From NCBI GenBank assembly GCA_000708835.1, contig DF237677.1:1-40323 (forward strand): a stretch of 40,323 nt of DNA, written 5' to 3'. The DNA is from Klebsormidium nitens. Taxonomy: Eukaryota > Plantae > Klebsormidiophyceae. Below, in pieces: positions 2,203 to 24,924 of the stretch. A model generated the notes under the pieces. That model had not been told where the DNA came from. It did no database searches and saw only the letters and a program-made list of their open reading frames with translations. The first letter of the stretch is position 1. The number at the start of each line of letters is the position of its first letter. Position numbers and translations under genes: made by a program.

Positions 2203-3192
2203 ATGGAGCCTGCCCCCGCAGAGCCCATCCTTGCTGCATCCAACGCCAGGTTCACAATGTTCCCAGTCCAGTACCATGAGCTATGGAAACTGTACAAGGA
2301 GGCTGTGGCTAGCTTCTGGACCACAGAGGAGGTGGACCTCAGTGACGACCTTCCCCACTGGGAGAAGCTCACAAGCAAGGAGAGGTTCTTCATCTCACGA
2401 GTGCTGGCATTCTTTGCTGCCAGTGACGGGATTGTCCTGGAGAACCTGGCCCTCAGGTTCTTTGCAGAGGTGCAGATTCCAGAGGCACGGGCATTCTACT
2501 CGATGCAGATGGCGATTGAGACCATCCATTCCGAGCAGTATAGCCTCCTCATCGATGCCTACGTGAAGGACTCTCAGGAGAAGGACGAGATGTTCCGCGC
2601 CATCGACTCCATCGCATGCGTCAAAAGGAAGGCGGACTGGGCAACCAAGTGGATCGAGTGCGGGCGGTCGTTTGGAGAGAGGCTCGTTGCCTTTGCATGC
2701 GTGGAGGGTATCCACTTCTTGGGGTCCTTCTGTGCCATCTTCTGGCTGAAGAAGCGGGGGCTCATGCCTGGCCTTTGTTTTGCCAATGAGCTCATCAGCC
2801 GCGACGAAGGGCTGCACACAGACTTTGCGTGCCAGCTCTACGAGACCCTCCAGGAGAAGCTGCCAGCTCAGACCGTGAGGGACATTGTCACTGATGTTGT
2901 GAAGATTGAGCAGGCTTTCATCAGTGAGGCACTACCCTCTTCATTGATCGGGATCAACGCTGGCCTGATGTCAGAGTACATTGAGTTTGTTGCTGACAGG
3001 CTCTGCCAGCAGTTAGGATACGAGGCAATTTACGGTACCGCCAACCCTTTCGATTTCATGGACCTTCAAAGCCTCGATGGCAAGGCAAACTTCTTTGAGA
3101 GGAAGGTCAGCGCCTATCAGCGGGCAGGGGTCGCCGGTGGACAGAGTTTCGCAGACATGTCAAATATTAGGACATATTATTTGGACTTCTAA
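2203..3192 (+). CDS. RNR2: Ribonucleotide reductase small (beta) subunit
   Basis: Motifs [67 protein letters not shown]; intronless, 329 aa. Confidence 0.97.
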
Positions 3193-4521
3193 AGGTCTAT
3201 GTAACAAGATCAGTAGAATGAAGTCTCATAAGGACAAACGTGGACACAATATATTACTCAATTGGCCTCCTGGAGGGAGCCTGGTGCTCTGTGTGATCCA
3301 TGCGATTGCCCATCATGCCATGCATGTCTGACAGGAGATTATGCAACAATGACGAATGAAGAGAATGTCATCATAGTGGAACGTAAGACATGCTTGATAC
3401 ACACACTTAGGGGAACGCATCTGCTCTTAGAGCACCAACCTACAGATGGATGCTGCTGCTATCACCGTTGCACGGGCCGCCAATCTGGCAACCTACGGGA
3501 ACAACCACAACAAAGAAGCGCAAGGTCTGCGACCGATCTCGCGTGCACTTCAGGAGGACGGCCGTCTCAAGTTCCACAAGTCCTTTGAGAAGGCTCTTGC
3601 TGACTTCTGCGTATATATGCCCGGTTTCCCCGCGCTCGGAGTACAGCTCAAAACCACGGGTGTAAACTGGATACAGAACCGTACAGACTACGAGTACTAC
3701 AGCTTCTCGCAAACTGGTGGATACGCTGGCCTGTTAATGATCTTCGTGGCCCTCCACACGCAGCCCCGCCGCATCTGGCTTGCGGATGGATCCAGGGTGA
3801 CCCGCATGAAGGTTGTGATTCCAGTAACCCTCCGGCGGGCCGTGAGGTGTGACGAAATTCGAGAGATAAAGCTCGCCACCCTGGCAGACGCAATCTACAC
3901 GATCTATATGGCAGCCCTATCAGGCTCTAGCAACTACGTGCTCCGCAGCCCAATGGACCACGAGAAGCCCACGGAACGAAACGCCTTGGCGGAGTACAAT
4001 GCCTTCCAGCGTCTTCAGTGCTCATTACCGGTCCTTTTCATGGACCCTCCAGCCGAGTACCTGAGCTACGATTATATCGTGGATGGCAGAAGGTGGCAGC
4101 TGAAGTTGGCCCGATACAATCGTAAATCTGATTACTACTCCGTGGGCTGCCATAAGCAAGCAGGCAGAGTGAACGGGAAGTGCACACAGAGGCAGTACGA
4201 AGTCGGCGATTTTGATTTCCTCTGCATCCAACTCCCCGAGGCCCCCAAGACCTTGCACTGCTGCTACGTGATCCCGCAGAGCATATTGGCCGATCATGAT
4301 CTCGTCGGCAACGCCACCAAGTCTTCCGGGGCTGTCCTTGTATACCCGGATCGACTGGTGACCGCCAGGAATGCTGTGCACAAACAGGGCGTTCACTGGA
4401 CGGAGACTTATCGCATCGATTTTGCCCGTGACCCGTTGGCACAATTGGCGCGCATTACACAGGGAGCATATCAAAGGGCAGGGGTCAGCAGTCAGAGCTT
4501 CGCAGACATGTCAAACATTAG
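3112..4521 (+). repeat. Direct repeat pair: RNR2 3' end (3112-3170) and endonuclease 3' end (4466-4521)
   Basis: GCCTATCAGCGGGCAGGGGTC...CAGAGTTTCGCAGACATGTCAAATATTAG versus GCATATCAAAGGGCAGGGGTC...CAGAGCTTCGCAGACATGTCAAACATTAG. Confidence 0.92.
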
Positions 4522-4537
4522 CGACGAGGAGTTTTGA
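3446..4537 (+). CDS. Tandem PD-(D/E)xK-type (D...QxK) endonuclease, probable free-standing homing endonuclease; C-terminus copied from RNR2
   Basis: Two nuclease-like motifs, ADFCVYMPGFPALGVQLKT and YDYIVDGRRWQLK. Ends [23 protein letters not shown]. Confidence 0.7.
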   Translation: MDAAAITVARAANLATYGNNHNKEAQGLRPISRALQEDGRLKFHKSFEKALADFCVYMPGFPALGVQLKTTGVNWIQNRTDYEYYSFSQTGGYAGLLMIFVALHTQPRRIWLADGSRVTRMKVVIPVTLRRAVRCDEIREIKLATLADAIYTIYMAALSGSSNYVLRSPMDHEKPTERNALAEYNAFQRLQCSLPVLFMDPPAEYLSYDYIVDGRRWQLKLARYNRKSDYYSVGCHKQAGRVNGKCTQRQYEVGDFDFLCIQLPEAPKTLHCCYVIPQSILADHDLVGNATKSSGAVLVYPDRLVTARNAVHKQGVHWTETYRIDFARDPLAQLARITQGAYQRAGVSSQSFADMSNISDEEF

Positions 4538-4588: not shown

Positions 4589-5410
4589 ATGGCAGCTGAG
4601 TTCAAACACGTGCCACTTACCCCAGAGACCAAGAAGCCTGCTCCTCCTCCACCTTACAGCCCGCCTCCTAGCCCTGTGCCCGCCAGAGGCCTCAGATTCT
4701 TCCGTAGGATTCATGAGCAAACGGCTGCTGTCACAGGTGGTGCATGGCAGGCAGTATCTACAGAATTCATTGCAACGTTCATGTTTGTGTACTTGGGTGT
4801 GGGATCAGTAATTGCATGTGGGCTGAGCCCCGACTCTAGGATCCATAGCACATCGGCACTCCTCGCATCGGGCCTTTCAAACGGCCTCGCACTGTCAGTC
4901 GGCACCGCCTTGGGTGCCACCAATGGGGTGGGGCACTGCAACCCATCCTTGACATTTGCCTATGCCGTAACGGGACGGTTGAGCATGCTACGAGCCATGT
5001 ACATGATATTGGCACAATGCGCCGCATCCTTTGGAGCGACCGGGCTTGCAGTAGTAGCATACCCTGTCTCCCTTTCTACCAACCGCCTCCATGCATGGTC
5101 GCTCGAAAGGGCTTTCTTGCTGGAACTGATTGCAGCATGCATCCTCACAATCACATCCATGGGGCTTCGAGCCAAGAAGGGATTGCAAAACCCTGCAGCT
5201 CCTGTTATCATGGGCTTTCTGATGACGGCAAGCATGGTGGCGGTGTCTCCATTTGCTGATGGAACAGTGAATCCCGCACGGAGTCTTGCGGTTGCGGCAT
5301 TCACGGCAGGTTGGAAGGATGCTTGGATCCATGTGATTGCACCACTGAGCGGGTCCATAGTTGGTGCCGTGCTTCACGAACTCATGATTGAAAGTACTGG
5401 TGAACCGTAG
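4589..5410 (+). CDS. Aquaporin / major intrinsic protein (NPS and NPA boxes)
   Basis: TEFIATFMFVYLG, GHCNPSLTF, GTVNPARSL, WIHVIAPLSG; several hydrophobic segments; intronless. Confidence 0.92.
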   Translation: MAAEFKHVPLTPETKKPAPPPPYSPPPSPVPARGLRFFRRIHEQTAAVTGGAWQAVSTEFIATFMFVYLGVGSVIACGLSPDSRIHSTSALLASGLSNGLALSVGTALGATNGVGHCNPSLTFAYAVTGRLSMLRAMYMILAQCAASFGATGLAVVAYPVSLSTNRLHAWSLERAFLLELIAACILTITSMGLRAKKGLQNPAAPVIMGFLMTASMVAVSPFADGTVNPARSLAVAAFTAGWKDAWIHVIAPLSGSIVGAVLHELMIESTGEP

Positions 5411-7254
5411 ACTTTCACTGCCTACTTCCTCAATTTCTTCTCACTTATTGCAGGAGGTTGATGGCCCTGATACAAAAACAGGCTCGCAACAAGAAAGGTT
5501 CTGGAATTCAGAGCGGGAAATCTGACAAACGCGCTGTATTAGAGTTTCAGTACCGGAGAGCTGTGAAGAACAAGGAAAAGTGGGCCAAGGAGAAGCTTCA
5601 AAGTAGGCTGAGCGCAAGAGAGAAACAGAAAAAGAACAAAGAGGTTCAAGATGCAATTAATGCTGGACAGAAGAGGCGGCAGAAACTCAACGAAGAAGAG
5701 GCGGCTACCGTGCGCAGACAGGTTGCACTGGGAGAGAGAGCTGCAATGGGACGGGAGCTCAGCAAGCAAGGGAAGGGGAAGAAGAAGAACAATCCCAACC
5801 AAAACACGGGAACTCAGGACGTGAGCCACATTGAAATGGTTCAAGGACTCAATAGACAAGGCAAGCAGAACAGTCCTGGGCAGTCTGCAAAAGCGCTTGA
5901 ACCGACCGAGACAGCCCGGAACAACCCTCTCTTTGAGAGCAACGTGCATAATGGGCAGCAATCTGCGACCCTCTTGGCACCTCAACAGATGCTTGGAGGA
6001 TCCGTGGTGACCAGTCACGACAATCCACTCTTCAAACCGGGCACCCCAGACGTGAGGAGCAGCTTACGGCTCCTTAAGAGCTCTCAAGGGAAGAGGTCGT
6101 TGAGGCCAGTTGCTACCCTGCCCGACTACCTAGAACCGCAGCCGCCTGCCGCGAGAAAACGACGGGATGAAGCACGGACAATCGACAACGACATCTACAA
6201 CAGTTTACAAGAGATGGATCTAGCAAAGATAGCAGAAAACGAGGAGAGGGAGGTGGTAGAACGTCTCGAGCAACTCCGATTCGCCCGTCCTGCAATCCCG
6301 AAACTTCGACGTCGCCCCTTTTTCTATGAAGTCGGTGCTGCAGTGTCCTCGCCCGACGAGAACGGGTGGGATGATCATGCGGAGGCTAAGCTGATTGAGA
6401 CCGAACTTCCGATGCCCCGCAAGGGTCACCCGCTCACTGATCGCATCTACCTGCGTGAACGGCATCCAAGAGCTAGTGAGAATCTGCCTGCCCCGTACAA
6501 ATCGACGGCCCTGCCTTATCGGCCACGTGCTACAAAGCTGCCAGTTTTTGACACTCGCAACCTACCAGTACCCAGCAGTATTGTGGTGCCCCCGCTGAGG
6601 AAAAGGCGCTCTACGTGGTACGAGGATCTTCCACCTACAAGCAATCTGAACGTCCCTACCTTGCGGACTAGGAGGGCTGGTCATCCTGTTGATATCCTTC
6701 CACCCACAACCATTGATGTTGCCACCACACCCCAAAGAACTCGACATGAATTGCTTGTGAAGGAACTTCCGCCACCTAACTACAACATGACCACTCCGCT
6801 CAGAGAACGTCGTCAAGGACTTGTGAACAATGAACTATTCCCGACACACAACAACCGCTCTCCCGGACCCCCTGACGACCTGCCGTCATTGAGTGGTCCT
6901 TTTGTCACGCCGCTCCGGATACGGCGTGCCGAAGACATGCTCACAGTCGCATCAACTTCCAGTGGCCTCCTACCCCCAATCCAAGCGAGAGAGTTTAAGA
7001 ACCTTCGAGGCAAGAGAGGGCCAGTAAACAATCTGGCCTTCAAGAAGCAGAACAACGCAGGGCCCCAACCGGACATTGGGCCGACAGGTGCATTCCCTCA
7101 GGGACGGATCACAGGAAAGCTGGAAAGGTCGCTTGCATTCAAGAAGCGTAACAATCAGAGGCCTCTCCTGAAACATGGCTCGACCATGGCCAAAAAGCCA
7201 AGCAGCTGGTCTCCGTTTGGGAGCCGAACAAAAGGGTACACGAGGATTGAGACA

Positions 7255-8238: not shown

Positions 8239-8604
8239 GTCAGCCACACAGCACCCACAAGAGGCTCTGGCTGGACAGCATTCTCACCCAATGATAAACG
8301 GTCCCTTTACTATGGCAAGGCAGCAAAACAAGTTGCTCGTAGAAAGGTTCCCACCACGACAATGCACATTCCCATACCACAGTCACCCGCACCAGTTGCT
8401 GCCACCACAATCCTCACAAAGCAGGGAGGTGGTTCTGTGGAAAGACTGCCCCTCTCACTGTCATCCATGAGAGGGTTGCCATGGAGCGACCCAAGATGCA
8501 GGGGAGTGAATCAGTAGCACTGAGAATGCTCATCGAGCGGGAAAAGATGCACATTTCTCAAAAGCGTGCGGCAATTGTTGCACTTGATAGATTGCTTTCA
8601 AGGC

Positions 8605-8781
8605 TCACCTGAGCGCTCGGCAGTTTGCAGATGACCTTTCCAGGTTAGTAACACAATACACCGGAAACCTGTCAATGTCCACAAGCAGCTCCCTTCGCTC
8701 ACGCTTCTTTGATGCAACAAGGATGACACATGTGGCTGCTGCCATCAGCATGATGAGGCACCATGCACGGTCCATTGCCAT
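8605..8781 (-). CDS. Small membrane-anchored protein or fragment; weak resemblance to the glycosyltransferase family 25 N-terminus
   Basis: Hydrophobic N-terminus, then KKRERR, then FPVYCVTNLERS (compare GT25 YVINLDR). Ends at AG/GTGAGC, which could be a stop or a splice donor; no downstream exon found. Confidence 0.3.
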   Translation of the reverse strand: MAMDRAWCLIMLMAAATCVILVASKKRERRELLVDIDRFPVYCVTNLERSSANCRALR

Positions 8782-9149
8782 AGAATAGCAAAATTGTTGG
8801 ACGGACAATTTGGGGATTCCGCATGTCTTTCTTATTGGACCACCGACAATGTTTGGTAGCGGCGGTCAGCCAGGTGATGGGTCTGCAAACATTTGTCGAA
8901 CCTGTGTATGAAATGACACGTAAAACCTTTACTCCTGTGCGCTTCTTCTCTACAACATCCCCAAATTGTGTCAGATAGGGTTTATGGTCCCAATGAGTGC
9001 CCACTGTGCTAGCCGCGGCGCCGCACAAGTGCGAGGGTGGCCTTTTCGAGCCCGGTTCTGAGTCAGTTAGGGTTCGGAGGTACCGGTACGAGCATCGAGG
9101 GGGGTCAGTGGGTCCCTACAGCGGCCTACAATGTTTCATTTTTGTGGGG

Positions 9150-9430
9150 GTATGGCCTTACATACATACATATTGGCCTTTGGATTCCACCAGAGAAACT
9201 CTGTACTACTAATCTGTTATATTCTCTCCTCCGAAAAGTAGATTATAATATTGTATCTTTTTGAGGGTATGGCCTTACATACATACATATCACCAATTGG
9301 AAAGCAAAGGGGGAACTCTGTACTACTAATCCGTAATAATTCCTTCCCTGGAGAAGAAAGAAAAAATAACAGATTGTAGTACAAGAGTCCTGGGTTCCCC
9401 CGCTGCTTGCCAATATGTATGTATGCAAGG
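9150..9430. repeat. AT-rich module upstream of topo II: two direct copies (117-bp period) plus one inverted copy
   Basis: GTATGGCCTTACATACATACATAT exact at 9150 and 9267; AACTCTGTACTACTAATC exact at 9197 and 9314; inverted near-copies at 9368-9388 and 9410-9430. Confidence 0.9.
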
Positions 9431-11258
9431 TCCCTTGGAAGAAAAACAAAGAGTTTTGGTATGGGGATTGAAGCCCTCAAATCCGCCCTTTGTATGACTT
9501 TCAAGCTGGCGCCGCCGGGCGTGGGTAGGCAGACCATGGCACACTCAAGCCACAGGCTGCCAATCTGCACTCATCCAGGGCCAACTTTCCTTCCTCCATA
9601 TTGCTTTCATTGTGGCCTGCAGCTCAGAATGTTCCTCTCTGTTCAACATGGCCTCCACTGCTCAGATCTCAGCAACTTACAGGCGCTGCACGCCCATCGA
9701 GCACATCCGAACTCGACCAGACTCCTATGTAGGCTCCGTTGTCCCAGAGCAGACCAGGACCTGGGTCATCGAGGAAGGGCGTGCCAAGGAGAAGGAGATC
9801 ACTGTCGTCCCTGGCCTCTACAAGATTGTGGATGAGATCCTGGTCAACGCAATCGACCAGACAAAGGTGGACCCGACCGTCGACTCCATCAAGGTCGAGG
9901 TTGATGTGGAGGCAGGGCTCATCAGCGTGACCAACAGCGGGCGAGGCATCCCTGTTGTTGAGCACGACTCTTACAATATGTACATACCTTAGCTGATCTT
10001 TGGCAACCTCCTGACCTCCTCAAACTATGATGACTCAGAGTAGCGGACAACCGGCGGGCGCAATGGGTACGGGGCCAAGCTGACCAACGTCTTCAGTCAG
10101 TCCTTTGCTGTTGAGACCCTGGACATAGAGAGAGGCATCAAGTATTGCCAGGTCTGGGAGGACGGGATGTCCAAGTGCAAGCCGCCAAAGATCTCCCGCC
10201 CCAAGAACCCCAAGCACGGCTACTGCAGGATCTCCTTCAAGCCCGACCTAGCTGTCTTCTCCATGGAACGCCTGAACGACGAGTTTGTCAGCCTCCTTCA
10301 CCGGAGGGCCCACGACGCCGCAGCCTGCACGCGGCCGAGCGTGAGGGTGTCTTTCAACGGCAAGAACCTCCCGTCCAAGGGTGGATTTGAGAGCTACTGT
10401 GAGCTGTTTATCGGCCCCAAGAAGGAGGCGCCGCGCGTGTTCTTCCGCCCAAACGAGCGCTGGGAGGTTTGTGTGGCTGCTTCCGCGGACGGCTTCCAAG
10501 CCATCTCGTTCGTCAACGGGGTGCACACGGCTCTGGGCGGCACCCATGTGGAGCACGTGGTTGCGCCGCTCACCCGGAGGGTTGCCGAGACGCTGCAGGG
10601 CAAGGTGAAGGGGGCTACTATCCGGCCAGCACATGTCAGGGAGAAGCTGATGCTGTTTGTGAATGCGACGCTGGTCAACCCCACCTTCAGCTCTCAGACA
10701 AAGGAGATGTGCACACTGAAGGTGAGCCTTTTTGGGAACACGTGCGACGTGCCTGACGAGGTGGTTGGCAAGGTGGTGAGCAAGCTAGGGATTGCTGAGG
10801 CGATCGTCGCAAAGGCGAGGGAGCGAGAGGCCAAGACCCTGTCACGAACGGACGGGAACAAGACGGGCGTCATCAGAGGGATCCCAAAGCTGGAGGATGC
10901 CAACAAAGCAGGTGGCAGGCGGAGCTCCGAATGCACGCTCCTGGTGGTAGAAGGGGACAGCGCGCGTGCTTTCGCCATGGCAGGGCTCTCGGTGGTTGGC
11001 AGGGATCTGTATGGGGTCTTTGCCCTGCGGGGGAAGATTCTCAACTGCAGGGACGCCCCAATCAAGGCCATCGCTGAGAACAAGGAGATTGCCAACCTCA
11101 AGCAGATCCTGGGCCTCCGAGAGGGCCACAAGTACAAGTCGCTCTCCGAGCTGCGCTACGGACGAGTCATGCTCCTCACGGATGCTGACTGCGATGGCAC
11201 GCACATCCGGGCGCGCTTCCTCAACTTTGTTGAGTTTGGCTGGCCGGAACTCATCGAG

Positions 11259-11391
11259 GTGAGCCACACATCCAGTGAGGGCTCTCTGACAATGGTATGC
11301 TGGATTTCCGCAGTCTTGTATCTGCTCGTGCCTTTGTCTGCCGCCGTCCCTGCCTCCTTCTCCATTCAAAAGTACAACGATTCTTTTGCAG
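11259..11391 (+). other. top2 intron 1 (133 nt, GT-AG, phase 0)
   Basis: GAG/GTGAGC ... TTCTTTTGCAG/CTG joins WPELIE to LGFAWH. Confidence 0.88.
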
Positions 11392-11521
11392 CTGGGGTTT
11401 GCGTGGCACCTGAGGACCCACGTGGTCAAGGCGTTCAAGAACAGCCAGACGCGTGCGTTCTTCACGGAGCGACAGTACAGGGAGTGGGCACAGACGAGCG
11501 AGGCCCGTGGTACCTGGCGCA

Positions 11522-11992
11522 TCAAGTTCCTGAAAGGTGTGGGCTCCCAGGGACTCGGTACCTCCCGGGGCCAGTCAACCCCTCCCTTTCGTCTTGGACC
11601 GGCTGGAAACCATAGCGCATGTAGAGGGCCTGTAGCCTGCTCAAGAGTGCGTCTTCGCCTGTAGGCTGCTCTTCGGCCAAAGGATAGCAGAAAAGCTGCA
11701 CTTCACTGATACCGAGGGAGTACATGTGCGCGAGTGCGGTGTTCAGCAGCAGAAACGAGAGTCCCAAACCCCGGAACGGTCTGGCGACACCCATAAGGCT
11801 TATGTATGCACTTGTCTCAAAGAGCTGATAGTTGAGGTATGCAATCTTTTGAGGAATGGCTCTGATTGCTGCGCCTGTGGTGAGCAATTCGATGGTCCCA
11901 GCAGCAAAATCATGGCGAGTCCTGACCTTCTGTTGGCTCAAATCTGAAACCGGCACCTGGACAAGCGGCTCTAGGCGGGCCACCATTGCCAT
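11522..11992 (-). CDS. GNAT-family N-acetyltransferase nested antisense in top2 intron 2
   Basis: YISLMGVARPFRGLGLSFLLLNTAL (acetyl-CoA motif A), GISEVQL and LYMRYGF. ATG at 11992 or 11986; the stop overlaps top2 exon 2 by 15 nt. Confidence 0.85.
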   Translation of the reverse strand: MAMVARLEPLVQVPVSDLSQQKVRTRHDFAAGTIELLTTGAAIRAIPQKIAYLNYQLFETSAYISLMGVARPFRGLGLSFLLLNTALAHMYSLGISEVQLFCYPLAEEQPTGEDALLSRLQALYMRYGFQPVQDEREGLTGPGRYRVPGSPHLSGT

Positions 11993-12045
11993 ATCTCTTG
12001 ACCCTCTACCCAAAGAGCACTGTCCTAAGCCCATGGGCGATGCAG
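11537..12045 (+). other. top2 intron 2 (509 nt, GT-AG, phase 1), containing an antisense GNAT gene
   Basis: AAAG/GTGTGG ... GATGCAG/GTCTGGGC restores IKFLKGLGTSTAKDAK. Confidence 0.82.
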
Positions 12046-12471
12046 GTCTGGGCACGTCCACTGCCAAGGATGCCAAGGATATCTTCAGCAACATGAGCAA
12101 GGTCACGTACACGACCGACCCCGGGGCGGCAGCGGCCATGCAGCTGGCCTTCCAGAAGGCAAGGGCAAACGACAGGAAGAGGTGGATTGTTGAGGCGATC
12201 GCAAAACCAGCGCCGGAGCCAGTGGGAGAGCGGGTGACCCTCTCGGAGATGGTGGACACCGAGCTGGTCAACTACTCCATCGCCAATGTCCGGCGCTCCA
12301 TCCCCAGTGCAATCGACGGTCTGAAGCCCTCGACGAGGAAAATTGTCCACGTCAGCATCAAGAGAAACGTTCGGGAGGAGTTCAAGGTGGCCCAGCTAGC
12401 CGCAGCGGTCGCAGAGGGGAGTGCATACCATCACGGTGAGAAGCGAACCTCTTGCGCAGATGGAGCGCATG

Positions 12472-13222
12472 AGCAAGTGATTTCAACCCCCCTCCTATAG
12501 TCAAAAAAGGGGGGTCCCAAATTCTCAAACACTTTTCAAAATTAGTCTCCATCCGTGTTTATGCGTGAGCTTGCCGTGACCTACAAACCTATGCTTTCTT
12601 ACCGGAATGGTTATAGTGTGCTGGGAACTACCAAGTCTTAGGTCTTAGCTCTTCCTTCAGGGATGGCTTCAACACGCGTGCGCGCATAAGCAAGTCATTT
12701 CAACCCCCCTCCTATAGTCAAAAAAGGGGGGTCCCAAATTCTCAAACACTTTTCAAAATTAGTCTCCATCCGTGTTTATGCGTGAGCTTGCCGTGACCTA
12801 CAAACCTATGCTTTCTTACCGGAATGGTTATAGTGTGCTGTGAACTACCAAGTTTTAAGTCTTAGCTCTTCCTTCAGGGATGGCTTCAACACGCGTGCGC
12901 GCACAAGCAAGTGATTTCAACCCCCCTCCTATAGTCAAAAAAGGGGTCTCCCAAATTTCAAACACTTTTGAAAATTGCGCTCCATCCGTGTTTGTGCGTG
13001 AGCTTTCCGTACACTACAGACATTTAATTTCTTACTGGAATGGCTATGGAACGCTGTGAACCGTAAGTTTTTGGTGCAGGGATGGCTTAAACACACGTGC
13101 GCGCATAAGCAAGTGATTTCAACCCCCCTCCTATAGTCAAAAAAGGGGTCTCTCAAATTCTCAAACACTTTTGAAAATTGCGCTCCATCCGTGTTATGCG
13201 AAAAGGTTGGCCGTTGACTACA
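12472..13222. repeat. Non-coding tandem array, units of 217, 217, 202 and about 115 bp
   Basis: AGCAAGT(G/C)ATTTCAACCCCCCTCCTATAGTCAAAAAAGGGG starts at 12472, 12689, 12906 and 13108. Copies 1-2 have an ACCCCCCT/AGGGGGGT stem. Confidence 0.95.
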
Positions 13223-13223
13223 A

Positions 13224-13745
13224 TCAGACAACCCTTCGGAAATTGGAAGTGTTGAGGGTCTGACGGGTGAACGGGTTTCTCGCACCCTCGTGCAACCTTT
13301 GTAATGCGTCTTTGTGATACGCCCTCGGAGCCTTTCCACCCCTCAACTCGCTTTCAAGGTAGATGTAGTTCCTCCGGTTTGCGGGGCGCTTGTTCAAGGC
13401 CATGAAGTTTGTGTTGATGAAGTCCGTATCATTCGAGACGGCGCCTGCTCGACCGTTCCGCACACTAGCCATGTTAAGGCGCCTATGACAAGGAGCAACC
13501 TCCATAGTTGCAGGAGTCTCGTAACCGACGACACTGCGAGGCCCTTCGGAATGCAACGCCCAGACAACGAGGTCGCTCAATGACCACTCATCGTGCATAG
13601 GAGGCTCACCTGACTCCACGTAAACGACTTCAAAGAGCTCTGGTGCTACCAACCGAGCGGACGTGGTGGCACCGTTCTCATGCTGCAGCTGGATGACGTC
13701 TCCAACGTCCATATAACGCAAGGTCTCCCAGATCTCCCTCTCCAT
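13224..13745 (-). CDS. Hypothetical viral protein nested antisense in top2 intron 3; C-terminal D-F-I...Y...L...NPFTRQ motif
   Basis: Intact 173-aa ATG ORF. The C-terminus (NDTDFINTNF...YIYL...YHKDALQRL...RNPFTRQTLN) resembles short U-box-like tails seen in algal-virus proteins (recalled, not searched). Confidence 0.72.
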   Translation of the reverse strand: MEREIWETLRYMDVGDVIQLQHENGATTSARLVAPELFEVVYVESGEPPMHDEWSLSDLVVWALHSEGPRSVVGYETPATMEVAPCHRRLNMASVRNGRAGAVSNDTDFINTNFMALNKRPANRRNYIYLESELRGGKAPRAYHKDALQRLHEGARNPFTRQTLNTSNFRRVV

Positions 13746-13904
13746 TCAGCATAACACAGAACCAGAATTTACTTTTTGTTGCAGGTGAGGAGAGCCTGAG
13801 CGGCGCCATCATCAACCTTGCGCAGACGTTTGTGGGATCCAACAACCTCAACCTGCTCGAACCGGTCGGAATGTTTGGAACACGCCTGGCCAACGGGAAG
13901 GACA

Positions 13905-14184
13905 GTGAGTGCACTGCGTTTGAGCCGTGTTCAAAACCTACGTGCCAATGAAGGACAGCATGTCAGCCAAGTCACTGGTGGGAGCCCCTCACTACGCCAC
14001 CCTGGCATCATGTTACAGGCCTGTGGTGGCAACCAAAGCGCTCGGCATGCAAGATGCCGCGTGTCTTGCAGCTCATGGCGCAGCCCTCTCTGCATGCTGG
14101 TACATTGCCAATGACTATCTCGAACGTCAAAAGCTGAAGGAGAAGCGCAGGCAGCTCCTTAAGAAGCAACTTGGGCGACCGCAG
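13905..14184 (+). other. top2 intron 4 (280 nt, GT-AG, phase 1)
   Basis: GACA/GTGAGT ... CCGCAG/GTGCC restores NGKDSAAPRYLFT, five codons before the catalytic Tyr. Confidence 0.88.
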
Positions 14185-14217
14185 GTGCCGCGCCGAGATA
14201 CCTCTTCACGCACCTGA
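13948..14217 (+). CDS. Possible small protein nested in top2 intron 4 (hydrophobic segment plus basic coiled tail)
   Basis: 89-aa ATG ORF spanning most of the intron, with coding-like codons (YLERQKLKEKRRQLLKKQL); runs 33 nt into exon 5 in another frame. Confidence 0.4.
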   Translation: MKDSMSAKSLVGAPHYATLASCYRPVVATKALGMQDAACLAAHGAALSACWYIANDYLERQKLKEKRRQLLKKQLGRPQVPRRDTSSRT

Positions 14218-15212
14218 CAAAGGCTGCGCTCTGCGCCTTCCATCCTGCCGACGCCCCCCTCCTGACCTACCTCGAAGAGAACGGCAAGGCCATAGAGCCG
14301 GCCTACTTTGTCCCGACCGTGCCCTTGATCCTCCTGAACGGTGCCTCCGGCATTGGCACTGGCTTCTCCACGTACGTCCCCAACCACGCTCTGGAGGACG
14401 TCATCGCCAACATCCGGGCTATGCTGCAAGGCCTGGACCCGGTCGAGATGCACCCTTCCTGGGCTGGCTTCAAGGGGACCGTCCGGGCGACCGAGAAGGG
14501 AGAGTACGTCGTCTCCGGGGTGTACGAGAGGATCGACAGCAGCCGCATCCGCATCACTGAGCTGCCAGTTGGGACGTCAATCGACGCCTACAAGGCTTTC
14601 CTGGAGAGCGACAAGCTTGGGGCCCGTTCCATCAAAAACGACTGCACGGACGCGGTTGTTGACTTCACCGTGGAGTTCAGCACCGGGAGGCTCGAGGCCA
14701 TCCTGCCTGACATCGAGAGGGAGCTCTGCCTCACCAGGAAGCTGAGCACCAACAACATGCACCTGTTCGACTCGAACGGCCACATCAGGCGCTTCGAGAC
14801 CGTGACCGACATCCTGCGGGAGTTCTTCGGGGTGCGGCTGAGCCTCTACGAACGCCGCCTGCTGCACCTGATCCGACAAAAGGAAGAGGAGCTGGCTGCC
14901 TGCTCCTACCGGGCGCTCTTTGTGACGAGTGTGCTTGATGGGGGTGTCCGACTCCTGAAAGCCAAGGTGGCGGACGTCCGTGCCGACATGAGCGCGGCAG
15001 GGATCCCCGAGACCTACCATCAGCGGTTCATGTCGCTCCCCCTGTCAAGCCTGACGGCGGACGAGGTGGAGAGGCTCTTGGCAGCCAAAGAGGCCCTGGT
15101 GTCAGCCCTTGACCTCCTCAAGGGCAAGACGGCCCCGGCTCTGTGGGAGGAGGACCTGCTTGAGTTGGAGAGAGCGCGGAAAATTGGAGCATAGATAGCC
15201 TGGTTGCTTGGT

Positions 15213-15956
15213 ATGGACTTTGGAGTGTGCGCAGATGCCTCATGTAACGAGAGGGTTTACCAGAAACACGACCGGTACTGCATGAAACACTTTCAGATCT
15301 CACCGAATCAAAGAGTGCGCGACTTTGACATTACTGAGAAGACCAGCATGGATGCCATCATGAAGGACCTGCACGCTCTAACACGATACACGTGGTACTA
15401 CAAGCCCGACGAGGATGACGTCCAAGTTGCAGAGTTGTCCTTGCAATACGCTCTGCAATGGAAGGCTGTGAGCTACGATGCAATTGCCCGCCTGGCCGTC
15501 GTCATGCAGTACCTCTATTGCACAATGGCGGCCCTCGAGCCCGTTGACGTGTACCTAAACCCTTACTCTCTCCCGGAAGAGCCCGATTATCACCCACTCG
15601 GGGAGACCCGATCGTCCCTCATGTACCTCATAGAGAGCTGCGGGATCCACGCTGCAAAGTTCTCGGGGCTCTCTAGGAGCCTCCCTTTGGTTGCGTTTGC
15701 CAGGCGCCGCTGCTACAGGCAGGCAGCAGACGTCTGGTGGAAGAGCAGGTTGAAGCTCGAGGCTTTTCACAAGGCCCTCGGCTGGCTGTGGTTCACCCTC
15801 AAGCGCTTCACACAGGCAGCCTCTCTTGCCCGCAGAGAGGGCCTCGCAGCAAGGGAACGCACTGTCCTGCGCATGGATGCTGAGGTGCTCGGTGGGCTTG
15901 CCGAGACCCTGTTCAAAACTGCATTGCTGCACTACCAAGAGCTACTCACAGTCTGA
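15213..15956 (+). CDS. Hypothetical protein
   Basis: 247-aa ATG ORF with an N-terminal C-x4-C...C-x2-H cluster; packed closely after top2. Confidence 0.7.
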   Translation: MDFGVCADASCNERVYQKHDRYCMKHFQISPNQRVRDFDITEKTSMDAIMKDLHALTRYTWYYKPDEDDVQVAELSLQYALQWKAVSYDAIARLAVVMQYLYCTMAALEPVDVYLNPYSLPEEPDYHPLGETRSSLMYLIESCGIHAAKFSGLSRSLPLVAFARRRCYRQAADVWWKSRLKLEAFHKALGWLWFTLKRFTQAASLARREGLAARERTVLRMDAEVLGGLAETLFKTALLHYQELLTV

Positions 15957-18629: not shown

Positions 18630-19643
18630 ATGGGGCTGTGCATTGGGAAGCAGAGAGAGCATGGGACTCAAGATCAACAACCATCGCCAGAGCAGGTTGT
18701 GCCAAGGGCAACCCTGTCAAACAAGGAGTTTGGATTCAACCAGCACTTTAAGGACATGTACACGGTCAAGGAGGAGATTGATCGCGGATCGTTTGGCAGG
18801 ACGCACATCGCAGAGGCCAAGTCACAAAAGGGTGGCACTGTGGCCGTAAAGATCATCCCAAAGAGCTCCATGATCAGTGAGGCCGCAATTATGGACGTGC
18901 ACAGAGAGGTCCAGATACTGAGCCTGCTGTCAGGCCACGAGGGGATAGTGGAGTTTATGGCAGCTTACGAGGACTTGATGAACGTGTACATTGTGATGGA
19001 GCTATGCCAAGGTGGTGAGCTGATGGATCACATCCTCAGCAACCAGGGGCCATACAAGGAGGCAACCGCAATCGAGCTGGTGTGGCAGATCCTCACGGCA
19101 GTTGCCTACATGCATGAGAAGAAAGTCATCCACCGCAACATCAAGCCTGAAAACTTCATCTTTGCCAACGAGAAGGACAACATCATAAAAGCGATAGACT
19201 TTGGGCTCTCCTACCGGTGTGAGGAGAACGAAACTATCAAAGAAGTGGTGGGCAGCCCATTCTTTGTCGCACCAGAGGTCCTAAAGCAGGCCTACAATCT
19301 CAAGGCAGACGAGTGGAGCGTGGGGATCCTGACCTACATCCTGCTGATTGGAACACGGCCATTCTTTGGGAGGACGGACTCGGAGATCTTCAAGGCCGTG
19401 CTGAGGGACGAGCCTGACATTGACAACGCGGACCTCAGCCTGCCCGCAAAAGACTTTCTGAAACGGCTGCTCAACAGGAACGTTGAGTCCAGGGCAACAG
19501 CAAGAGAAGCCTTGGATCACCCTTGGCTCAGAGATAGATCCGCAATGCCCGTTCAACAGGGCTGCGGCAGTAATGACACATGCTCCGCCCTCGATAGCAC
19601 TCGTCACATATGCAATGACCGCACGGAATCATTGCAAACCTGA
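18630..19643 (+). CDS. CDPK-related (CRK-like) Ser/Thr kinase domain without EF-hands; catalytic HRD reads HRN
   Basis: MGLCIGK myristoylation/palmitoylation-type start, VAVKII, YIVMELCQGGEL, HRNIKPENF, DFGLS, APEVL, EALDHPWL. Confidence 0.85.
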   Translation: MGLCIGKQREHGTQDQQPSPEQVVPRATLSNKEFGFNQHFKDMYTVKEEIDRGSFGRTHIAEAKSQKGGTVAVKIIPKSSMISEAAIMDVHREVQILSLLSGHEGIVEFMAAYEDLMNVYIVMELCQGGELMDHILSNQGPYKEATAIELVWQILTAVAYMHEKKVIHRNIKPENFIFANEKDNIIKAIDFGLSYRCEENETIKEVVGSPFFVAPEVLKQAYNLKADEWSVGILTYILLIGTRPFFGRTDSEIFKAVLRDEPDIDNADLSLPAKDFLKRLLNRNVESRATAREALDHPWLRDRSAMPVQQGCGSNDTCSALDSTRHICNDRTESLQT

Positions 19644-21388: not shown

Positions 21389-21670
21389 ATGGCTTCTCAA
21401 GTCAAGAAGTACAGGCTAGAGCGGAGGCAGGTCATGAAGTCTGAGAAGGACCACACCTCGTCGGGCCTCAGGAAGGATGACCTTATGTACAAGAGTCATG
21501 ATGGAAAGTCCAGGACTATCGTGTCCCGCAAGAGGCACGAGAATGCCTTGAACAATCCTAAACTCCAGGCGTGGTTGGACCACGTCAAGAGCGTTTACGA
21601 AGACATCAAACCCCTCGGCAAGACATACAAGGATGCCATGCAGCTCGCTGCAGCCACCTACAAACGGTGA
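21389..21670 (+). CDS. DVNP-like (dinoflagellate/viral nucleoprotein) basic DNA-binding protein
   Basis: T-S-S-G-L-R-K-D-D-L-M ... IVSRK ... L-Q-A-W follows the DVNP pattern T.GGL.K.DL...IVSK...W. Confidence 0.72.
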   Translation: MASQVKKYRLERRQVMKSEKDHTSSGLRKDDLMYKSHDGKSRTIVSRKRHENALNNPKLQAWLDHVKSVYEDIKPLGKTYKDAMQLAAATYKR

Positions 21671-21707: not shown

Positions 21708-22535
21708 ATGATTCTCTTCCTTGTGCTCCTATCTTTAAGCAGCTGCGTAGTTTCTCAGGAGCAGGGCTGGCTGGCGGGTACCGCCACTTACTACACAGGA
21801 GTTGACGATGTGTCCGGCGGTTATGCTGGAAATTGCGGCTTCTCAGATCTCAGCCGCAACATTGCTGGGATCCCGGGGGCCACCTACGGCCCTCTCTTTG
21901 CAGCCGGCAGCGATCAACTCTACAAGGGCGGAGCAAACTGCGGGGCATGCTACGAGATCAAGTGTCTAGAAAACCCTGTGTGTACCGGCAAGACCATCCA
22001 GGTCACCATCACCGATTACTGTCCGACTCAGGGCAACGAGCAGTGGTGTGGGGCCGATAAGCACCATTTCGACCTCTCGGGAAAAGCATTCAGCGAGCTG
22101 GTCAGCACGATGGCGATCGGCCACTTTGAGCTGCAGTACCGCCGAGTGCCTTGCAAGAAGACGGGGCCGCCTGTTGTATCAATCGAAGGCAATCCCTACT
22201 GGCAATCCCTTCGAGTCCTGAACTTGGCAGGTGGGGGCGCGTATAATGCGATGCTCATCCGCTCACCTGGAGGCCAGTACGTCCCGTTGAAGCGGGACTG
22301 GGGCACGAGCTTTGTTCACAATGGTCAAATTCAGGCTCCAATCTCGGTGAAGCTCTTGGTTAATGACCCAAAGAGCGAGGTCGAACTGATTGATTGCGTG
22401 CCAGTGGGATGGGTTGGCGGAGAGTACGCTTGCAAGGACAGCAGTAGTACTGTACACACGCCAGAGAGCAGGAGGATGACGATCCAGGACAACAAGCAGC
22501 GCCTCCAATGCAACTGCACGTGTGCCACCTTCTGA
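21708..22535 (+). CDS. Secreted plant-type expansin (DPBB plus CBM63 domains)
   Basis: Signal peptide; ATYY, GNCG, CGACYEIKC, TITDYCP, HFDLS, YRRVPC, LKRDWG. Confidence 0.9.
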   Translation: MILFLVLLSLSSCVVSQEQGWLAGTATYYTGVDDVSGGYAGNCGFSDLSRNIAGIPGATYGPLFAAGSDQLYKGGANCGACYEIKCLENPVCTGKTIQVTITDYCPTQGNEQWCGADKHHFDLSGKAFSELVSTMAIGHFELQYRRVPCKKTGPPVVSIEGNPYWQSLRVLNLAGGGAYNAMLIRSPGGQYVPLKRDWGTSFVHNGQIQAPISVKLLVNDPKSEVELIDCVPVGWVGGEYACKDSSSTVHTPESRRMTIQDNKQRLQCNCTCATF

Positions 22536-22571: not shown

Positions 22572-22865
22572 ATGTCAACTAACAAGACGTCAGGCTACGT
22601 CGACAAGGCCGTCGGAGCTTCAAAGCAGGCCGCAGGGAAGGTCTTCAGCAACCGCCTTGAAAGCCAGGGTGGCGCACAGCGTGAGAAGGGGCAAGCAGAG
22701 ATAGACGCTGCAAACGCTCGGAAGCAGGCAGAGGCCACTGGCGACAAGGTTGCAGGAACGGCAAAGCAGGTTGCAGGATCTGTCACAAACAACACGAGTC
22801 TGGCTAACGAGGGCAGGGCTGAACGTCTATCAGGCAAGCAGAAGGGGGCCCGTAACGAGTTTTGA
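22572..22865 (+). CDS. CsbD-like / LEA-like small hydrophilic stress protein
   Basis: Two G..K...G repeats (DKAVGASKQAAGKV, DKVAGTAKQVAGSVT...EG.AE...G). Confidence 0.7.
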   Translation: MSTNKTSGYVDKAVGASKQAAGKVFSNRLESQGGAQREKGQAEIDAANARKQAEATGDKVAGTAKQVAGSVTNNTSLANEGRAERLSGKQKGARNEF

Positions 22866-24195: not shown

Positions 24196-24924
24196 ATGGA
24201 GCGCCTGAGAAGATATCACAACATGGTTAAGACCAAGGCGTTGAGCGAAGCTCTTCAAGGCCGGGACGCTCCCAACACCTCCCTGCTTGACCTGGCATGT
24301 GGGCCAGGTTCAGATTTGCACAAGTGGCATCGGCTTGGGATCCATGATGCGATGGGCTTGGATGCCAGCGAGGAGGCCATCCTAGAAGCGCGAAAGCGGA
24401 ACAAGACATGCAAGACAGCCTACCGTTTTGTCATCGCAGATGTTTGCAATCGGCTGGAACGGTATGCAAGACAGGAACGCTGGGATGTCATCACATGCAA
24501 CTTTGCAATCCACTATCTCATGGAAGATCCAGAGAAGTTTGCCAACCTCCTCAGTGCAGTCAGTGGCGCATTGAAGCCTGGTGGATATTTCATTGGCACT
24601 GTCCAGAACGGTGATAGGGTGGATCAGCTTATGGGCAACAGCAGCAGCTACAGGAACAACATCCTCAGTGTGCGGCGGGCGGGTGACATTGTGGAATTTG
24701 ACATGCACGGCACGTACTACTTTGAGAATGGAGCCAGCAGAGAGATGTTGGTATGACCAGAGAACATCATAGGTCCTGCCTTAACAGCAGGGCTCAGTTT
24801 GAAGCGCTGGAGTAGCTTCCCTCAATACCTACCAACCCCACAGGACTACCCAGAAGATGAGATTGTGATTTCAACAATGTATGACACGTTTGCTTTCTAC
24901 AAAAGGCCTTTCAGCTGTTCCTGA
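24196..24924 (+). pseudogene. mRNA cap guanine-N7 methyltransferase with in-frame TGA at 24754-24756
   Basis: LRRYHNMVK, LLDLACGPGSDLHKW, GLDAS, DVITCNFAIHY, LKPGGYFIGT. After the TGA the frame continues PENIIG...MYDTFAFYK to 24924. Confidence 0.85.

Follow-up and report, generated by a model that had tools for sequence, protein, structure and literature searches.

How does an intact acetyltransferase gene come to lie backwards within an intron of a viral topoisomerase gene, top2, that is itself interrupted by stop codons? The question is raised by a stretch of 40,323 nucleotides of Klebsormidium nitens, analysed here over its whole length and called the window. We consider it probable that the GNAT-family gene, antisense in a GT-AG intron of top2, is an old and fixed resident belonging to a nucleus-dependent virus lineage, and not a late insertion into a dead gene. 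The nested arrangement is probably older than an earlier note on this DNA had recognised.

The window consists, from position 1 to about 25,400, of a dense block of giant-virus-type genes (Table 1), a RING protein gene among them, followed at 26.4-32 kb by an intron-rich gene with 4Fe-4S and AAA-lid domains. We interpret the block as a viral element that has become endogenous and that continues, in the one assembly examined, into host DNA. Among its plant-type cargo, the expansin has plant beta-expansins as its best solved relatives, and the kinase has a calcium-dependent protein kinase, from which we take the host to be of the green lineage and probably an alga. In the kinase of the window, HRN replaces HRD, the usual kinase motif at this position. 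The element is in decay, with two stops in top2 (TAG at 9990-9992 and 10041-10043, both in exon 1) and one in the cap methyltransferase, amounting to 3 stops in 3445 codons across 11 recognisable viral genes. A reading of TAG as an amino acid was rejected, as TAG terminates 8 of 24 ORFs and occurs in frame only twice.

Judging from its sequence, the element likely derives from Nucleocytoviricota. An NCLDV capsid is present on all three searched contigs of the window's top2 clade; the window itself contains no capsid gene. The assignment is given as likely only, because mirusviruses also encode top2, according to the part of PMC12768974 covered here. In a FastTree phylogeny of the window and 60 of 67 viral top2 ORFs (those longer than 900 aa), which has no labelled mirusvirus or eukaryote reference rows, the window top2 occupies a long branch within a starred clade of 16 rows.

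Table 1. Positions of the features discussed, counted from the first nucleotide of the window; a slash marks a predicted splice junction, here and in the text.
Feature	Position	Strand	Remarks
RNR small chain + PD-(D/E)XK-like ORF	2203-4537		
PD-(D/E)XK nuclease	3446-4537		
Aquaporin	4589-5410		intronless, plant-type cargo
top2 exon 1	9648..11258	+	ATPase, transducer, TOPRIM
top2 intron 1	11259..11391	+	133 nt, GTGAGC...TTGCAG, no cargo seen
top2 exon 2	11392..11536	+	ends W-R-I-K-F-L-K-G/
GNAT-family acetyltransferase gene	11522..11992	-	156 aa; 3' end overlaps the donor and top2 exon 2
top2 intron 2	11537..12045	+	509 nt, GT-AG, phase 1, carries GNAT gene
Second in-frame G-L-G-T-S	11551..11565	+	just inside intron 2, antisense of GNAT G-R-Y-R-V
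TGCAG acceptor of intron 2	12041..12045	+	reads CTGCA on GNAT strand
top2 exon 3	12046..12435	+	
top2 intron 3	12436..13784	+	1349 nt, splits HHG/E
Tandem array	12465..13200	.	about 3.5 units of 217 bp, within intron 3
Conserved gene, family without name	13224..13745	-	173 aa, nested in intron 3
top2 exon 4	13785..13904	+	
top2 intron 4	13905..14184	+	280 nt, GTGAGT...CGCAG, few codons before P-R-Y
top2 exon 5 to stop	14185..15194	+	
CDPK-like kinase	18630-19643		intronless, plant-type cargo
DVNP gene	21389-21670		
Expansin	21708-22535		intronless, plant-type cargo
CsbD-like stress protein	22572-22865		intronless, plant-type cargo
Cap methyltransferase	24196-24915		internal TGA at 24754-24756, frame runs on beyond

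Removal of the four predicted GT-AG introns from top2 yields a frame of 1091 aa. At KG/LGTS, HHG/E and GKD/AAPRY, the last including P-R-Y, which we take to be the top2 active-site motif, no residue is gained or lost after removal in comparison with 10 intact viral top2 proteins. Intron 2 splits the Gly codon of KG/LGTS and has the borders AAAG/GTGTGG and GATGCAG/GTCT, with TTGAC at -48 in a pyrimidine-rich stretch; a consensus branch site was found in none of introns 1, 3 and 4. On sequence grounds, the host spliceosome is predicted to excise intron 2 and yield a full-length top2. A self-splicing group I or II intron was rejected: there was no Rfam match at E <= 1 in 8500-15300, and 90% of intron 2 codes for protein on the opposite strand. 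Introners would occur as several similar copies in one genome; within the window, no long repeat common to the four top2 introns was found (background on introners and endogenous giant viruses is given in the covered parts of PMC12166617, PMC11244446 and PMC12344493). In 65 of 67 viral top2 ORFs, all of them distant (identity <=52% with the full exon-1 query), KGLGTS runs on without interruption. A sequence pattern designed to detect a donor at this position in any viral top2 retrieved six loci, none of them top2.

The gene inside intron 2 is largely as the earlier note had described it. Its stop-free frame of 156 aa covers 456 of the 509 nt of the intron, in agreement with the 90% claimed, and runs through the donor to end at the first antisense stop in exon 2, overlapping the exon by 15 nt with the stop included. 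The two stops of top2 and the DVNP gene about 10 kb away were also correctly noted. The GNAT assignment is borne out by Pfam Acetyltransf_1, with 21.0 bits (E 4e-4) lying just above the cut-off of 20.7, which all five family homologues introduced below pass as well (21.3-37.7 bits). Atlas look-alikes, based on language-model features, are GNATs at 0.95. An alignment-based structural model (pLDDT 75.8) matches the GNAT fold with a Z score of 13.8 and an rmsd of 3.1 over 121 aligned residues; its strands are confined to residues 23-69, and its tail at 136-156 is disordered (pLDDT < 50). R74 and G77 of motif A are invariant in the family, and of the 19 residues that do not vary among the five homologues the window protein keeps 17, the exceptions being F80 and A106. 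A 205-aa version, with the frame extended to 12139, was rejected: four homologues start where residues 1-3 align, making 156 aa the likely length.

The earlier note had also contrasted the clean passenger with its broken host gene. This contrast carries no weight, because a gene of 156 codons would be stop-free anyway with P = 0.75 at the rate of top2 and P = 0.87 at that of the 11 genes; on the same figures, the argument that clean means selected was rejected.

A phmmer search with the GNAT query over 1.84 billion cluster representatives gave nine hits, five of which form a family with the query and are 40-48% identical to it (core identities within the family, 36-49%). Three others (P0009, P0011 and P0013) were discarded as spurious matches driven by their repeats, and P0012, a more distant GNAT, served only as outgroup. 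The query and its five homologues, six known members in all, form one branch (100/100) with respect to the next GNATs. Each homologue lies on a single Logan, ENA or JGI contig of 3.3-29 kb, which could belong to a further endogenous element and not to a free virus. A word-indexed protein search with the GNAT gave no match among 80 candidates, and with the family alignment it returned only three known members. Neither the family loci nor the junction pattern was found in the viral contigs searched, and no family loci were found in the metagenome contigs searched. Prokaryote genomes gave only 18 weak, partial and generic GNAT matches (30-38%), and the family profile had no match in two viral records.

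The ends of these proteins are informative on the location of their genes. The tail of the window protein, H-L-S-G-T-stop, is the antisense of top2 I-K-F-L-K-G/GT. Four of the five homologues end in N-L-S-G-T, Y-L-C-R-T (twice) or Y-L-C-R-I, and these tails back-translate in antisense to [IVT]-K-[FY]-[YL]-K-G/GT in the same register as in the window, in proteins only 41-48% identical to the query; P0008, the remaining homologue, lacks the tail. If the motif is limited to residues that occur in the window and in 65 intact viral top2 proteins, it is matched by 544 of 3.2 million pentapeptides, which puts the chance per protein at 1.7-3.7e-4, and none of 314 giant-virus ORF ends fitted the first form of the motif. 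The differences among the tails are those expected from an L/Y change in top2 and a synonymous Lys codon. Furthermore, position -5 is H, N or Y in all five fitting proteins (the window and four homologues), residues that are among the 4 of 15 possible ones that force the Gly codon GGT, that is, the donor. No tail fits an uninterrupted KGLGTS. The fold does not explain the conservation of the tail, since this part is disordered in the model. The three proteins ending in YLCR[TI] may represent a single lineage, which the family tree does not resolve, and their predicted donors are weak, with C at +5. In the flanking host gene, GTGTAG and GTACCC are among the candidate donors at junctions picked by eye, and the host therefore seems able to use donors of this kind.

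As four of the five tails carry the footprint of the site, the gene likely occupies the same top2 intron site in related viruses, a reading obtained from back-translation, and would predate integration. Its presence before integration is also suggested by the divergence within the family, which is far deeper than the decay seen here.

Other explanations of the locus have to be weighed against this evidence. The usual view of introns in endogenous nucleocytoviruses is that they reflect post-integration decay (PMC12768974, in the part covered), and the GNAT cassette and the introns could accordingly have entered top2 after integration, during decay and host assimilation. The stops in top2 and the cap methyltransferase fit such a course, as does a CpG observed/expected ratio of 0.70 in the element, close to that of the host flank (0.71); nine loci within the window's top2 clade have ratios of 1.19-1.54, and two sister loci have 0.86-0.87. 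A late event does not account, however, for a same-site footprint in four homologues at 41-48% identity, nor for the concentration of introns in top2, which has four at conserved motifs when the other recognisable viral genes of the window are single ORFs, and we regard it as unlikely. We are similarly sceptical of a selfish mobile intron that homes in trans, for example by means of the PD-(D/E)XK nuclease, with the GNAT as a hitch-hiker or maintenance factor and of no benefit to the virus. Like homing elements, introns 2-4 do occupy strongly conserved motifs; introns 2 and 3 begin much like the exons that follow them (10 and 9 of 14 nt alike, with 5 of 14 for introns 1 and 4); the same element contains a nuclease gene that carries a duplicate of the RNR 3' end; and another viral top2 has an intein-like insert. 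But none of the four introns holds a nuclease, and no evidence links the PD-(D/E)XK nuclease to top2.

The same conserved arrangement could also be read with top2 split instead of spliced, so that the GNAT gene would lie between two genes. The N-terminal half would then keep the inner GLGTS and stop at 11662, and the C-terminal half would restart at the ATG of M-G-D-A-G-L-G-T-S, in frame and 12 nt before the acceptor. An in-frame GLGTS five codons into the insert has a chance of about 3e-5 within 10 codons, which rises to 0.007 on the assumption that G-T-S is dictated by the GNAT, whose G-R-Y in antisense itself gives G-T-S. Nevertheless, the other three introns of top2 need splicing anyway, no in-frame ATG precedes exon 4 in intron 3, the motif is restored with single-base precision when the GT-AG intron is taken out, and the tails of the homologues give K-G-T-S, which lacks the inner G-L and keeps the GT. 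Of the readings considered, we find this split the hardest to credit.

On the reading we favour, that of an old resident in a spliced intron, host splicing would remove intron 2 to give full-length top2, and the GNAT would be transcribed from the other strand with its own short upstream region, in which CTGCA would double as the TGCAG acceptor. The intron would probably have arisen when a small gene cassette inserted backwards into K-G-L-G-T-S, supplying or reusing G/GT and CAG/G; the inner GLGTS and the likeness between intron and exon starts may be relics of target duplication. The intron would persist since its loss would lose the enzyme, and the window copy now sits in a decaying endogenous viral element.

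The layout is repeated in intron 3, which also encloses a conserved antisense gene. This gene has three Logan homologues with 45-52% identity and a C-terminal N-P-F-T-R domain; its Atlas look-alikes are weak (0.84, below 0.9) and serve as a lead only, and it was not found in the viral contigs searched. The tandem units in the same intron are 78-98% alike, two of them 98%, and occur nowhere else in the window. CTGCA lies 53 nt upstream of the GNAT ATG, where it coincides with the acceptor of intron 2, and 39 nt upstream of the ATG of the intron 3 gene, where it coincides with the acceptor of intron 3. Of 22 other viral ORFs, 12 have the motif in the 70 nt upstream and 1 has it downstream, and among 239 coding windows it occurs in 32; shuffles gave a mean of 3.0, and none of 2000 reached 12 (p = 0.006, corrected for 1024 5-mers). 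TGCAG is an ordinary splice acceptor as well. We treat the enrichment as a lead, because the motif was chosen after the fact, on our own list of 24 ORFs, and is loosely placed (-12 to -68). Whether the top2 introns of this nucleocytovirus lineage constitute a cargo bay, with backward insertions, CTGCA turned into an acceptor and inheritance down to about 40% identity, is in our estimate an evenly balanced matter.

As to the enzyme, the best solved matches of the family profile include Naa30, Naa50, Naa60 and uncharacterised bacterial GNATs (E of about 1e-4 to 3e-3), and in fold the protein comes closest to the C-terminal domains of tandem GNATs. It shares with NatC/Naa30, Naa50, RimI-like proteins and these tandem domains the motif A R-G-x-G, an LLN helix, a strand and LY-x-x-YGF. 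It differs from RimI in falling far below the cut-off of the RimI equivalog (NCBIfam TIGR01575; 14.1 bits for the window protein against 86.4, best E among six members 4e-4), in its restricted strands and disordered tail, and in belonging to its own small family. The most likely activity, proposed tentatively, would be the N-acetylation of a protein or peptide during infection; a small-molecule amine is a possible substrate that we favour less. The earlier suggestion that the enzyme acts on chromatin proteins or DVNP finds no support, as its nearest matches are N-terminal acetyltransferases and bacterial GNATs and DVNP is just a neighbour, and DVNP or a histone as the specific substrate appears doubtful.

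The closest known parallel is found in mirusviruses. In the part of PMC12768974 covered, more than 2,000 genes are reported in mirusvirus spliceosomal introns, including shintron nucleases and MING-1 at one terminase site, and nucleocytoviruses are described as generally lacking such introns, with the exception of decaying endogenous elements, pandoraviruses and some chloroviruses. The covered part of its supplement file 10 contains one GNAT row and two top2 rows marked as not gene-carrying. Like MING-1 in that account, the gene described here is a non-nuclease gene carried by a GT-AG intron of an essential viral gene, probably at one and the same position in distant relatives. Unlike MING-1, it likely belongs to a nucleocytovirus, its host gene is top2, its cargo is a GNAT enzyme and its tail overlaps the exon and donor; in addition, its conserved position is deduced from homologue tails. 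By analogy, the GNAT intron would work like the MING-1 intron, with its GNAT cargo and top2 host gene placing it outside the MING-1 family. Nor is it a shintron: it shares with these the location within a spliceosomal intron of a conserved viral gene (PMC12768974, same part), but HNH, GIY-YIG, VSR and PD-(D/E)XK nucleases are absent from all four top2 introns, and the ORFs within introns 3 and 4 match nothing in Pfam.

The introns of chloroviruses (PMC7019647) and punuivirus (10.64898/2026.10.09.758095) are, in the parts covered, likewise host-type and nucleus-dependent, and can be functional and conserved. They are short, however, at 81-98 nt in chlorovirus cv-pdg (PMC7019647) and 176 nt on average in punuivirus (10.64898/2026.10.09.758095), compared with the 509 nt of intron 2, and a nested gene appears in neither account as far as covered; the covered text of the punuivirus preprint mentions neither nested genes nor GNAT or topoisomerase. 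Within the literature searched, in which subscription journals are thinly represented, gene-carrying spliceosomal introns were found in print only for mirusviruses, and none in a nucleocytovirus top2.

If the cargo-bay reading is true, the GNAT intron would be the first enzyme-carrying MING-like intron outside Mirusviricota, and would show that the introns of an endogenous giant virus can date back to the virus itself instead of being products of decay. A GNAT retained in a top2 intron throughout a diverged lineage of viruses would extend the gene-carrying layout to the other giant-virus phylum and to a replication gene, and such introns would imply a stage in the host nucleus for these viruses. 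A testable route of intron gain also emerges, in which an antisense gene inserts and brings its own acceptor, together with a reusable method, in which the C-terminal residues of homologues reveal where a nested gene is located.

Several minor features of the window and of related loci were observed along the way. An N run, marking an assembly gap, lies at about 38.2-39.1 kb in the host flank. Intron 4 contains an 89-aa ORF on the same strand (13948-14217, +) with a hydrophobic and then a basic stretch, which crosses the acceptor, gives no Pfam match and may be due to chance. The intein-like insert in another giant-virus top2 (locus L051, 8020-9145) lies at the Q-F-G motif, a few codons from the intron 4 site of the window; it starts with Cys and ends with His-Asn, the pattern of an intein. 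Several other viral top2 ORFs are 1400-1800 aa long, and inteins are possible there. The last ~26 codons of the nuclease ORF repeat the RNR C-terminus, with 27 of 29 nt identical in the best stretch, which is the pattern of a homing-type nuclease inserted, with duplication, into the 3' end of a gene. A pyrimidine tract and CAG a few bases before the ATG of several viral ORFs (for example at 5461, 22572, 24109 and 21315) look like the acceptors of putative 5' UTR introns. Finally, the non-coding stretch at 9127-9430, upstream of top2, contains two 95-nt direct repeats and nested inverted repeats around TACATACATACATA, and could be an origin-like sequence or the remnant of a mobile element.
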